DNA from: an uncultured bacterium
GTDB lineage: Bacteria; Babelota; Babeliae; Babelales; Babelaceae
Length of the DNA stretch: 64,000 nucleotides
Reading direction: 5' to 3'
NCBI GenBank assembly: GCA_963713855.1
Contig: OY970209.1
Coordinates: 1,248,001 to 1,312,000, forward strand
This document shows positions 2-28,645 of this stretch, piece after piece. The first letter of the stretch is position 1, and every line of letters starts with the position of its first letter. The notes under the pieces are model-generated. The model saw only the letters and a program-made list of their open reading frames with translations, did no database searches and was not told where the DNA came from. A program made the translations under genes and the position numbers.

Positions 2-841
2 GAGCTTTCATGTAAAGATTGGAAATTAGAACGCAGATTGGAAAAAGAATGGAGCTCTTTAGCTTTTCTTAAAAGAAATAATGAAGAACAAGCAATACTA
101 AAGCAGTTAAAGGGTCACCCGGTACGGTTTATCAGCAACTTAGTAGCCGATGACGTTGGTGCTTTTATCGCGCAATCAGCTCATATACTTAGTAATCGGG
201 TCTCCATCGTGCCAGATCACCATGCCTGTATGTATAAAACTATGGCACATCAGCCCGCTTCTCTTCACTCGTTTATAGGCGGGCATACACTGGAACAAAA
301 TCCAGGAAAAATACGTAAGAGTATTGTGCAACTCACATTCATTGGAAACCAACGAATTCATGGACTAACCCGTCATGGCATTAATGCCATGACCGCGCAT
401 CCGGATCTTCCAAATATTGCGGCTATAGATACCTTCATGGGTAATACTGATAGGCTACCTAAAAACATCATACATAATAAGAGTACAAATCGCTTATATG
501 CAATCGATTTTACCTTGGCATTTAGCACCAATCTGGCACGTCATACCATAAAACATTTAAGGTCACTTTTACGAAAAAAGGTGCATTTTAATCAATCAGA
601 GCTCAAAGCTTTAAAAACCTATAAGAGCACACTAAAATATCTCCTTACGATACATACGCCACATTCTTTAGAAACTCGCATACATGAGTCACTCCAGGAA
701 ACTGGCTTTTTAAGCAATAAACACTACTCAAGTTCCACTAAAAAAGCCGTGACCCAAAAGATCAATCAATATAAGCAAATAACGAGAGAAAGCTTTGTAA
801 GTTCACAGGAGCTTGTGTCTCTTTTAGATACAGTAAGCTAG
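2..841 (+). CDS. HipA-like / PI3-4-kinase-superfamily atypical kinase (5' truncated by window edge)
   Basis: Frame is open from base 2 (ELSCKDWKLERRLEKEW...). Motifs AILKQ (beta3 Lys), DTFMGNTDRLPKNII (NxDRxxxN catalytic loop) and LYAIDF (metal-binding Asp). Confidence 0.6.
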   Translation, partial: ELSCKDWKLERRLEKEWSSLAFLKRNNEEQAILKQLKGHPVRFISNLVADDVGAFIAQSAHILSNRVSIVPDHHACMYKTMAHQPASLHSFIGGHTLEQNPGKIRKSIVQLTFIGNQRIHGLTRHGINAMTAHPDLPNIAAIDTFMGNTDRLPKNIIHNKSTNRLYAIDFTLAFSTNLARHTIKHLRSLLRKKVHFNQSELKALKTYKSTLKYLLTIHTPHSLETRIHESLQETGFLSNKHYSSSTKKAVTQKINQYKQITRESFVSSQELVSLLDTVS

Positions 842-873
842 TTTCAGCCCCCAAGTAAAAATGAGAGAAGCAT

Positions 874-1134
874 GCGCCTACGCGGCATCATAAGAGTCAT
901 AGTATTGACTCTTATGAAAGGGCTCATAAGCCTGTACACAGGCTTTATGACCCTTGACCCGCACCCTGCTTAAACTTTTTATGTTTGTTTAATATACCAG
1001 AAAGGATTTCCTTTCTGGTATATGTGCAATGAGATAGACCGGATTTTCCGGTCTATCTCATACACAATAAGTATGTAACATGCATAACAAGCAACAGGTG
1101 CAGGACAATGTCCTGCCGCGCGCCGCGTAGGCGC
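874..1134. other. Highly structured non-coding element (candidate ncRNA or palindromic DNA element)
   Basis: Perfect 13-bp inverted repeat 874-886/1122-1134 encloses hairpins at 888-917 (12 bp), 918-955 (bulged), 992-1023 (15 bp), 1029-1061 (15 bp) and 1100-1116 (8 bp). Confidence 0.7.
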
Positions 1135-1169
1135 CTATTCCTCTTTGGATTACTATTTAGGAGCAGAAT

Positions 1170-4061
1170 CTAATCATTTTTTAAAGGGCTATCGCCCAGT
1201 GCTTTAACGATGGGATAGCAGCGATGGCAAAGCTCAAACGGCCTTTTTCCGGTATCCCAATTCCAACAACGAGGACACTTAACTCCTTCAGCGTGATCTA
1301 TTTGCGCAAAAAGTCCTGCATAGTCCGATTCTGATAGAGATCCTTTATCATGAGTAACTGTTACAAAAGAAACGATAAAAAATTCTCTAAAGAAATCTTC
1401 CAATGTTTGGCCCGTTGCTGCTAAGCTATGCACAAATTGCTCAAAGAGGGCATTGCTCATAAGTTCCTGACCAAAATAAAGCGTTACATGGGCTTCTAAT
1501 GAGTGCTTAATAAGGCCTTTTTCACGTTGCACTTCAATCGCCTTCAGTACAGCAGAGCGAACTTTACGTAAAAGCTCCCACATCTCGATAGTGGTGTTGC
1601 CTCGTGCTAAAAATTCGAATGACTCTGCGATTGGCTCAGTGTTTAGAGGTTCTTCTGAAAGCCATGGTGCAGGGGGGTTAAAAAAGCTCTGCAAATGAAT
1701 TGAGCAATCTTTATCTTTTTGATAAGCATCACTCAAATATTCAGCGGTAAAGGACAAAATAGGAGCCATAATCTTTGTAAGCATGTCAAGAAGGTACCAA
1801 CACACAGTTTGAGCTGAGCGGCGCTTGTGCCCAGCAGCACTTTCAACATAGAGCCTGTCTTTAACGAGGTCCAAGTACCACGAGCTTAGGTACACCGTAG
1901 TAAAATCAGCAAGCGAGTGAAAAACTCCTGTAAAATGGCCAGAGGCATAATGGCTTTGCATAAGCCGATTAAAAAGAACGGCATAATTCAAAATACCTCG
2001 ATCGACAAGCATTAGCGAATCGAATGGCAAAGCATCTTTTTTAACGTCAAAGTCGTAAAGGTTTGAAAGCAAAAATCGAGAAGTGTTTCGAATTTTGCGG
2101 TACACTTCTGCCACGTTCTGTAAAAGATTTTGAGAAATAACAGCATCTCCCTCATGCCCCACGCTTGCTACCCAAAGCCGCAAACCGTCAGTTCCGATTT
2201 GCTTGATAATTTCTTCAGGAGCAATAACATTGCCCAAGGACTTAGACATCTTTTGGCCTTTTCCATCGACGGTAAAACCGTGCGTCATAATAGCCTTCAT
2301 AGGCGCGGTGCCTTCAAGTGCCAAAGCTGTTAACAATGAGCTCTGAAACCAACCACGGTGCTGATCAACACCCTCTAAGTAGAGGTCTGCTGGAAAAGAA
2401 AGTTCCGGGTTATTATAGAGCACTGCATAGTGACTGATACCGGCATCAAACCAAACATCCAATATGTCTTGCTCTTTTTTAAAGCGATTACTACCACAGT
2501 GTGAGCACGTGGTCGGGTTTTCTAAAAGAATCTCCTCAACTGATACACGATCCCAAAACTCTACACCCTCAGCTGCAACGTGATCGGCAGCGTAATTGAC
2601 AAGTGCAGGTGTGCAATAGACTGTATCACACTCAAGACATAATAGTGCGGGAATCGGAACACCCCACACACGCTGGCGTGATAGGCACCATTCCCAGCGG
2701 CTTTCAACAGTGGCTCTTAAAAAATTTCTACCTGCCGGTGGCATAAAAGTAATGCCATCCACAGCTTCCACAGCTCGCTCTTTAACACCATTATGTTGCA
2801 GATTAAAAAACCACTGCTTAGTAGCTCTAAAAATAAGCGGTGTATGGGAACGCCAACAAAAGGGATAGCTATGTACAAGCGTGGTCTTATAAAAAAGCTT
2901 TCCTTCATTAAAAAGAGCTTCCAAGACCCAGTCTTGCCCTTGACTAACCTTCATGCCCTTAAGAGATGCAGGATAAATACCTTCATCATATGCTCCATCG
3001 GGGGTTATCGGTGAATAAATTTCAAGTCCATTTTTCACACCAAGCTCATAATCGATAGGGCCGCAACCCGGAGCAATATGAACACACGCCGTACCTTCAG
3101 AAAGCCCAACAGATTCATCAAAAATGACGGGCACAGTATCTTTGCCAAAGGGTGGCTGCACATGCACTGTCGCAAAAGCTTGAGCGGGCAAGTTATCTAA
3201 AATAGTAGCTTCTTCTTGAACCATCTTTGATAAGCGCGGTAAAGTTTGAGCACCTACAACGACGAGGTTTCCTTTTAAGCGAGCAAGAACATAAGACGCA
3301 TCTGGCCTTAGGCATACTGCACGATTGAGAGGTAAGGTCCAGGGAGTGGTCGTCCAAACAAGAAATGAAACAGTTTCATCGGTCTTTGGAAAGAGCTTTT
3401 GCTTGCTCTTTGCATCAAAGGGAAAAAGAACATATGCCGATGGGTCCTTACGGTCCTTATACTCGATTTCAGCTGCAGCTAAAACAGTTTTGCATTCTAA
3501 GCACCATGGCACCGTTTTGTTTTTTCGCTCAATAAAATTGCGCTCTAGTAAAACCCCAAAAGCCCGCATAGTCTTAGATTCGTAGGATGGATCCATCGTC
3601 AAATAGGGATGCGCCCAGTCCATCAAAATACCTAAACGCTTAAATTCCTCCCTTTGCACGTTGATCCAGTGACTCGCATAAGCACGGCATGCTCTTTTAA
3701 GCTCTAAATCGCTTGCACACTTTTTTTCCTGAAGCACCTTGATTTCAATAGGCAATCCATGACAGTCCCAGCCAGGCTTTAAAGGTGTGTGAAAACCGGA
3801 CATACGACGGCCCTTGGTCATAATGTCTTTCAAGATGCCATTATAAGCATGTCCTAAATGGAGATGTCCATTTGCATAAGGTGGACCATCATGCAGTACA
3901 TAAGACGCCAAACCCTGATGCAACCTATAACTTTTTTCATAGAGATCTTCTTCTTGCCAACGGGCAATAAGCGCAGGATCATCAATAGCAGCATTAGGCC
4001 TCATGGGAAATTCCGTCCGTGGAAGATTAAGAGTGTCCTTAAAGCTAACCTCTTTCGACAT
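1170..4061 (-). CDS. ileS: Isoleucyl-tRNA synthetase (IleRS1 type)
   Basis: LHDGPPYANGHLHLGH, PGWDCHGLP, WTTTPWTLP, DQHRGWFQS, KMSKS and C-terminal CPRCW...CHRC zinc finger. Probable start MSKEVSFKDTLNLP at 4061. Confidence 0.97.
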   Translation of the reverse strand: MSKEVSFKDTLNLPRTEFPMRPNAAIDDPALIARWQEEDLYEKSYRLHQGLASYVLHDGPPYANGHLHLGHAYNGILKDIMTKGRRMSGFHTPLKPGWDCHGLPIEIKVLQEKKCASDLELKRACRAYASHWINVQREEFKRLGILMDWAHPYLTMDPSYESKTMRAFGVLLERNFIERKNKTVPWCLECKTVLAAAEIEYKDRKDPSAYVLFPFDAKSKQKLFPKTDETVSFLVWTTTPWTLPLNRAVCLRPDASYVLARLKGNLVVVGAQTLPRLSKMVQEEATILDNLPAQAFATVHVQPPFGKDTVPVIFDESVGLSEGTACVHIAPGCGPIDYELGVKNGLEIYSPITPDGAYDEGIYPASLKGMKVSQGQDWVLEALFNEGKLFYKTTLVHSYPFCWRSHTPLIFRATKQWFFNLQHNGVKERAVEAVDGITFMPPAGRNFLRATVESRWEWCLSRQRVWGVPIPALLCLECDTVYCTPALVNYAADHVAAEGVEFWDRVSVEEILLENPTTCSHCGSNRFKKEQDILDVWFDAGISHYAVLYNNPELSFPADLYLEGVDQHRGWFQSSLLTALALEGTAPMKAIMTHGFTVDGKGQKMSKSLGNVIAPEEIIKQIGTDGLRLWVASVGHEGDAVISQNLLQNVAEVYRKIRNTSRFLLSNLYDFDVKKDALPFDSLMLVDRGILNYAVLFNRLMQSHYASGHFTGVFHSLADFTTVYLSSWYLDLVKDRLYVESAAGHKRRSAQTVCWYLLDMLTKIMAPILSFTAEYLSDAYQKDKDCSIHLQSFFNPPAPWLSEEPLNTEPIAESFEFLARGNTTIEMWELLRKVRSAVLKAIEVQREKGLIKHSLEAHVTLYFGQELMSNALFEQFVHSLAATGQTLEDFFREFFIVSFVTVTHDKGSLSESDYAGLFAQIDHAEGVKCPRCWNWDTGKRPFELCHRCYPIVKALGDSPLKND

Positions 4062-4267
4062 GATGATCCTTTCTTCAAGTCTTAGATTTCTATTTCTTTT
4101 AGAGTACCGTAAGGCCTCAAAAAGCGCAAATAAGCCACTGACCGCAAAGGTCGTCAAAAATTCAGTTTTTGGCAAAGACCTTCTGCCACTCTTCAAGTCT
4201 TGCTTTTTATGAATAATTTCTGCTATAAATAAATTTAATAACATGAGGGTAAAAAAAGGAGAACTAT

Positions 4268-4702
4268 ATGTATAAGAACATGACAGCAGCATTCTTGCTT
4301 ACTATATGCTGTTTTTCCAGCGCTCTTTTTGCGCAAACTGCTCCGTATATGGGCCAGGGACCTGACGGAGACTATGACCCCGAGCAAGGCGCGTATATGG
4401 ATGCCAACCAGCCCCAGGAAGCAATTGCTGTAGAGGGAGTCGCTTATCCGGGCGCCGTAGGCGTTTACCCAGGCTATGCAAGAACTGCAAGAGGTGCAAG
4501 AGCCGCTAGATATGGTATGCAAGAAAGACGCTCGGATAGAGGGCACGGTCCTCGACGCATGGGCCAAGGCCAAAGAAGGGGTACGCAAAGTCGCCCAACA
4601 CAAATGAATAGAACACGTGGCCAGTGGATGAGACGAGATACGCCTTATGGAAGTTCTTTCAATAGAAGAACACACGCTTATCATAGAGGGTACCGCGGGT
4701 AA
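4268..4702 (+). CDS. Secreted low-complexity protein (acidic N-half, Arg/Gly-rich C-half)
   Basis: AGGAG RBS upstream; signal peptide ending ALFA; compositional bias. Confidence 0.7.
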   Translation: MYKNMTAAFLLTICCFSSALFAQTAPYMGQGPDGDYDPEQGAYMDANQPQEAIAVEGVAYPGAVGVYPGYARTARGARAARYGMQERRSDRGHGPRRMGQGQRRGTQSRPTQMNRTRGQWMRRDTPYGSSFNRRTHAYHRGYRG

Positions 4703-28466: not shown

Positions 28467-28645
28467 GAATATCGCGATCAGTTTTAGGGTTTATAAAATA
28501 TTTCTAATTATTATAATTAAAATTAGCATTAAAATTCAAGAGTTTGTAAATTGACACTGAAATTCGCTTTAACGCTCAGATTGGTGAACTGCTCGACCTC
28601 GCATTTTCACCAAAGCTAGCAATGGGTGCAGGGCAAGCGCCCTGC

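Follow-up and report, generated by a model that had tools for sequence, protein, structure and literature searches.

The IS427 group of IS5 is reported to consist of elements of 832-865 bp that mostly carry 2-bp repeats, and the MITEs of IS5/IS427 type are described as non-coding elements dispersed between genes, with IS-derived terminal inverted repeats, a duplicated TA and a transposase supplied in trans (PMC3281130). Pneumococcal BOX and RUP combine a modular interior between fixed ends with strong folding and an enrichment between convergent genes (published account, PMC3049150), while the E. coli repeat RRS / TRIP1 is presented as a highly folding sequence of 200-300 bp with a fixed orientation relative to the replication fork (10.1101/2023.10.01.560376, PMC13308219). 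Traits like those listed for these three kinds of repeats are seen in one element found in the window (the whole stretch of 64,000 nucleotides that was analysed) and in further copies elsewhere in the same genome. The element is probably a stranded, non-autonomous composite MITE, whose captured palindromic core would have been reshaped through template switching during replication and has an orientation bias relative to the fork.

A preliminary description of the window had outlined a hairpin-rich region inside a 13-bp closing stem, and all the arms that it listed were present in the sequence: the closing stem (874-886 with 1122-1134), an inner long-range stem (961-971 with 1089-1101) and hairpins at 888-917, 918-955, 992-1023, 1029-1061 and 1100-1116. 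A repeat search of the region returned perfect hairpins of 15, 15, 12, 8 and 8 bp. The folding z-scores were -14.1 and -16.6 for RNA of the plus and minus strands and -14.4 for DNA of the plus strand, and 0/200 shuffles folded as well in each of the three cases. The 13-bp stem did not hold as the boundary of the element, since conservation reaches ~35 nt past each of its arms, to positions 841 and 1170, and these flanks are themselves imperfect inverted repeats, an additional terminal pair outside the stem.

The complete element thus begins with the A end (841-874, plus strand), the decayed left end of an IS5/IS427-type IS whose consensus matches an IS of a congeneric genome. It is followed by the left inner inverted repeat, which is the end of the core (875-886, plus strand) and is itself a mini-hairpin of 4 bp whose loop reads GCRNA on the opposite strand. 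The core includes the optional hairpin module HP1 (888-917; 12-bp arms, 6-nt loop), HP2 with a remnant of the left end module (918-966), for which other copies carry alternative forms, and two constant hairpins, HP3 (992-1023), with paired stem changes and a stem pairwise identity of 0.90, and HP4 (1029-1061), with a stem pairwise identity of 0.965. On its right side lies the 'P' end module (1094-1133, minus strand), which consists of the inner inverted repeat (1122-1133) and then a GCAGG..CCTGCACC hairpin. The B end (1134-1170, plus strand) carries the last codons of an IS427-type transposase gene and the right terminal repeat. The copy sits between two convergent genes that are outside the element: a kinase-like ORF (38-841, plus strand; starts before the window), with weak PI3/PI4-kinase and HipA-like matches below the Pfam cut-offs, and the isoleucyl-tRNA synthetase gene ileS (1170-4292, minus strand). 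The kinase-like ORF has a homologue in the congener that is 36% identical. The TA target duplication is seen on the left at 839-840, inside CTAG, where 839-841 is also the TAG stop of the kinase-like ORF, and on the right at 1171-1172, where the minus-strand gene ileS has its TAG stop at 1170-1172.

A BLAST search of the window's own genome (one contig, 1.52 Mb, 41% G+C) showed the element to be multi-copy, with 21 loci, 20 of which have a complete core and one of which is truncated. The same element gave no match better than E=7e-4 in 40 relatives, and when metagenomes were scanned for HP4 and the left terminal repeat, in a collection from which near-identical records may be missing, 0 matches were returned. 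All 21 copies lie between called ORFs, except for two short shadow ORFs, and convergent gene pairs hold 11/21 of them, compared with 251/1321 gene pairs in total (p=6e-4). TA stands directly outside 23 of the 38 recognisable ends, two degenerate ends having been dropped, and is absent at 15; the genome TA frequency is 0.073. At 7/40 ends, including both ends of the window copy, the stop codon of a gene finishes exactly on the first base of the element (TAG = TA + first base). HMMs of the element ends detected no empty shells in this genome.

The A and B flanks differ, yet both begin with an imperfect inverted repeat. When a 20-nt pattern of this terminal repeat was searched in 261 genomes of the class, an exact match was obtained in 1 of the 260 others, the congener (G001), and matches with two mismatches in six other genomes were at control level. 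The match in G001 is the tip of an IS of ~810 bp (L018:1504), flanked by TA, with two frames matching PF13340, PF01609/PF13586 and NF033580 (149 bits); in its length, its division into two frames and its 2-bp repeat it agrees with the IS427 group as described in PMC3281130. Among 26 IS5-type loci and stretches tested, this IS was the best match. The consensus strings of the two ends, assembled by hand from alignments, match it at 20 of the first 21 nt of the left end (A) and at 26 of 37 nt of the right end (B), and the B consensus keeps the last transposase codons, reading PISLWLTI* where the IS reads SILLWLKN*. The IS (L018:1504-2312; G001:C2 ~1252025-1252835) is a single-copy IS5/IS427-type element whose first frame stops early, and it is probably inactive; it is broken, and a relative rather than the proven donor of the shell, with a right end that matches at only the 26 of 37 nt given above. 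A lone right end of an IS427-type IS, 80% like the IS of G001 and without core or left end, was also noticed in the window's genome (G000:C1 1237985-1238025).

In the window's genome, which is 91% complete by markers, a cognate transposase gave 0 matches for PF01609, PF13586, PF13340 and PF13358 and by tblastn, and no IS5, IS630 or Y1 transposase and no reverse transcriptase were detectable. The terminal repeats are only 63-67% alike among the copies, compared with 82-97% for parts of the core. Given the absence of a transposase and the low likeness of the terminal repeats, the family appears to be stranded. The better conservation of the core also fits selection on a function. Of the possibilities raised in the preliminary description, that of a non-autonomous palindromic mobile element is supported and can be specified as an IS5/IS427-derived shell around an independent repeat core. 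A retron finds no support, with 0 matches to RVT_1 in the genome, a dispersal of the element in 21 copies, and the kinase-like ORF and ileS as its neighbours. The RAYT/REPIN version is not supported in this genome either, with 0 matches to Y1_Tnp, and in the congener the Y1 genes do not sit at repeat loci. GIY-YIG had a single match, which lies within a frame of 434 aa; each of the 5 genomes tested has one of such a size. A novel non-coding RNA, the remaining suggestion, is unproven and is considered below.

The core has a distribution of its own. Its 12-bp inner repeat has 30 exact matches in the window's genome, 9 in G001, 9 in G052 and 0 in the other 38 genomes of the family, and a longer end pattern occurs in many copies in the window's genome, G001, G051 and G052, and as single matches in 2 others, the remaining 255 of the 261 genomes being free of it. 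A shell-free form of the core family is present at ~45 loci in G001, where 0/88 of its ends have shell-like flanks, and also in G051 and G052. The core interior has the end module alone in common with the cores of G001, and the inner hairpins differ (best E=0.008). The P end module is the part common to the shell-free repeats of relatives and of other phyla; the covariance model R1, which was built partly from the window copy, scores the P module of the window at 50.4 bits. Among the matches listed, which include some chance ones in coding DNA, the end motif is a dispersed repeat in MAGs of delta-proteobacteria and Binatus, in Planctomycetota, Chloroflexaceae and Desulfovibrio, and in one genome of the Clostridiaceae; a viral scan for it gave 0 matches. 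No mobiliser family was shared across taxa near the end motif in 80 GTDB loci, the other 48 loci being too short, and none recurred among 80 neighbours in G001, with ORFs of >900 aa or crossing the 20-kb borders left out. A literature search returned no description of this core family, which may be listed in the supplement of the MITE census PMC11602168, outside that search.

Several other loci resemble parts of the core. Three diverged shell-free relatives occur in the window's genome (G000:C1 157927-157977, 143755-143904 and 154345-154470), and the window itself has an isolated P-module-like GCAGGG..CCCTGCACC hairpin without the inner repeat (28625-28645, minus strand; E=0.068 in one R1 search and 1.4 genome-wide), which may be a relic or a chance match. 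Tandem, BIME-like arrays of end units are seen at L033 and L048 (G052), with 25-bp and 31-bp periods in G052, and at L119, L121 and other Clostridiaceae loci. In G001, variable runs of 5-bp AATTG/AATCG units adjoin the inner repeat, outside one end type of the shell-free repeats, possibly as a result of slippage at the hairpin foot or of repeated target duplication. The closing module of the Planctomycetota loci L107, L146 and L190 may resemble the GC-rich inverted repeat that lies beside ColE1/R64-type transfer origins.

Within the shell the core is variable in its arrangement. It is reversed against the A and B ends in 8/21 copies, five of the orientation calls having been made from one clear end, and the loops of HP3 and HP4 are each found in both orientations among the copies, that of HP4 in one direction in 7 copies and as the reverse complement in 2. 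HP1 is located at the left end in 9/20 complete cores and is copied to the right end in 2, and paired Watson-Crick changes are seen in the stems. A tree built on the core centre (150 nt), comprising 19/20 cores (one has no anchor) and poorly resolved, with 11/15 inner branches open, places the flipped copies in scattered positions and requires 7 changes, at least 3 of which are forced by one well-supported branch; one flipped and one unflipped copy are identical over this centre. Template switching has been reported to invert loops and to keep stems perfect (PMC8794818), and loop flips, copying of end modules and paired stem changes are signatures reported for this process (PMC8794818, PMC8604942). 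No comparable clean empty site was found in the congener, with which amino-acid identity is ~54% and most flanking gene pairs are non-syntenic; since no such site could be compared, flipping in place is inferred. Synteny with G001 was retained at 3 of 13 scorable copies, and at 1/8 convergent as against 21/55 convergent pairs, counts too few to call.

The existence of both core orientations might also suggest a programmed invertible switch, which a recombinase flips at the 12-bp repeats to alter the expression of neighbouring genes. The 12-6-12 shape of HP1 is typical of tyrosine-recombinase sites, and the sole tyrosine recombinase of the genome (G000:C1 409269-410219, minus strand) is encoded 3 kb from one copy. 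However, this gene is single-copy in 32/41 genomes of the family, occurs in element-free genomes and has a distribution that does not track the element; the inner loops flip as well, which a site-specific recombinase would not explain, and most copies lie at gene 3' ends, and no promoter was found. Judged on the tyrosine recombinases, the class that the search covered, a switch of this kind is very improbable. The enzyme is probably a lone Xer-type recombinase, and as a core invertase it was rejected.

The orientation of the core follows replication. Cumulative GC skew assigns the origin of the genome to 395.6 kb and its terminus to 1196.9 kb. The skew minimum (G000:C1 ~395550-395900) has TTATCCAC-type boxes, which recur there, and a tract rich in A+T, as would be expected of oriC; a strict DnaA-box density scan did not single out the origin, although degenerate boxes can be seen at the minimum. 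In 19/21 copies the leading strand carries the window-minus strand of the core (p=2e-4), or 18/20 without the terminus copy, a bias that was examined after the data were seen, while the direction of the shell agrees with replication in 13/21 only (p=0.38). Accordingly, the core is flipped in 7/8 shells lying in the disfavoured direction, compared with 1/13 others, which is the same information as the 19/21 bias and not a second test. A shell-free single-module form in G261 and G262 takes the same direction in 22/27 cases by gene-balanced skew (p=0.0015) and in 19/27 by raw skew (p=0.052), several windows having near-zero skew. In G001 the bias is not significant (26/42, p=0.16), and flank skew revealed none in other taxa (Clostridiaceae 5/8, Planctomycetota 4/10, Chloroflexaceae 4/6, Desulfovibrio 3/8).

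As controls, 701/1324 ORFs and 30/38 tRNA genes of the window's genome lie on the leading strand, and because the tRNA genes share the bias, transcription could explain the polarity of the core. The core would then be a functional, independently transcribed structured RNA of the window-minus strand, hitch-hiking in a MITE shell, with its copies, as in the case of tRNA and rRNA genes, maintained in the direction of replication and flips selected towards that direction. Besides the strand bias itself, this is favoured by better folding of the window-minus strand as RNA in 16/20 cores (by a mean of -5.3 kcal/mol), by the conservation of the core far above that of the shell and by the paired stem changes. 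Several observations speak against it: the loops of HP3 and HP4 invert freely, one-sided stem changes produce 4 G-T pairs on the window-plus strand as against 1 on the minus strand, and past the end module the interior has no detectable likeness to the G001 cores. No Rfam family reached its threshold, the best score being 22.7 bits against a cut-off of 55 (E=0.4), and in 9 related loci no family was found except a neighbouring tRNA. The minus-strand U-run, put forward earlier as a hint of an RNA, belongs to the IS-derived left end; no promoter-like or terminator-like site was found, with 0 sites in the terminator scan of 800-1250. A transcribed RNA is considered unlikely.

The same polarity raises the question of whether the core works as DNA at the replication fork, in the manner of the gap-triggering RRS repeats of E. 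coli, or the substrate of an HUH-type single-strand mobiliser that sets the polarity, with the shell as a passenger. The fixed orientation, in this genome and by gene-balanced skew in G261 and G262, is in line with such a role, as is a higher G4Hunter-type score of the leading-sequence strand in most cores of the genome, and fork-polarised orientation has been reported for single-strand IS families (PMC3971601). RRS ends in a similar GCAGGGG..CCCCTGCACCCC hairpin and was the top R1 match in each of two 5-kb E. coli loci; however, with E=1.5 this match lacks significance, and an R1 scan of the whole chromosome did not report RRS. The shared module has the opposite polarity: its G-rich strand is found on the leading template in the element described here, but in RRS on the lagging one. 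The weaker raw-skew result and the near-zero windows in G261 and G262, the non-significant bias in G001, the lack of a detectable Y1 transposase or reverse transcriptase in the window's genome and the lack of a shared mobiliser around the GTDB and G001 loci also weigh against this explanation, and it appears quite improbable. A kinship of the core end module with RRS, suggested by a terminal hairpin that is alike by eye, is possible, and is to be taken as a lead and not as a result.

The composite MITE reading, which we prefer, may be set out in four steps. At first, an older palindromic repeat bounded by 12-bp inverted repeats would have replaced the inside of an IS5/IS427-type IS, leaving ~35 bp of each IS end around the core. 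An IS427-type DDE transposase acting in trans would then have carried the composite into 21 YTAR sites with duplication of TA, most of them lying between convergent genes and some of them in stop codons; the transposase would since have been lost and the shell ends have decayed. Thirdly, template switching between inverted arms may perfect the stems, flip the loops, copy the end modules and flip the whole core, with gene conversion between copies also remodelling it, so that no flip-dedicated enzyme would be needed. Finally, one orientation of the core relative to the fork is favoured, possibly in that the orientation folding more obstructively on the lagging-strand template is flipped or deleted more often, or in that it is selected against. 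Flipping that is directed, the purging of one of the orientations or selection may each lie behind this preference. A more far-reaching and rather doubtful reading holds that the core end module represents a widespread palindromic family for which no description was found, fork-polarised and perhaps kin to E. coli RRS; in this genome a MITE shell of random orientation would have captured it, and it would afterwards have turned itself to the fork-favoured orientation. As a family it would cover Babeliales-like genomes, delta-proteobacterial/Binatus MAGs, Planctomycetota, Chloroflexaceae and Clostridiaceae.

As a MITE, the element is ordinary selfish DNA. What it would add is its nested origin, in which one repeat family is captured by the ends of another, and the combination of a randomly oriented shell with a core that follows the fork. 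If this is true, the copies constitute a natural experiment on DNA hairpins meeting the replication fork and allow one to ask, inside a single genome, whether the flipping, purging or selection of folded DNA depends on the template strand that it occupies. They would also point to a cross-phylum hairpin family without a known mobilising enzyme, for which the link to RRS is possible and unproven.

Compared with the IS5/IS427-type MITEs, the interior here is a foreign repeat with inverted repeats of its own rather than a deleted IS, it is reversed in a part of the copies and fork-polarised while the shell is not, and the partner transposase was not found in the window's genome. The shell-free core family shares with the REP, REPIN, BIME and GTAG/CGTC/TIR repeats, as treated in PMC3733652, a short GC-rich palindromic end unit, tandem arrays, inverted pairs and a patchy distribution; it differs in that the window's genome has no RAYT and G001 none that is repeat-flanked, and the core end motifs were not found in four supplementary files of that paper. 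In BOX, the modules vary in number and the strand preference, of ~61%, mirrors the coding bias only (PMC3049150), whereas here inversion affects both the modules and the core as a whole, and the bias reaches 90%, with ORFs at 53%. RRS has, by eye, a hairpin at its end that is similar and that an ACCC tail follows; in the published accounts (10.1101/2023.10.01.560376, PMC13308219) it is found as two conserved copies in E. coli and is without the 12-bp inner repeat, while the element described here has 21 lineage-specific copies and weaker G-runs.
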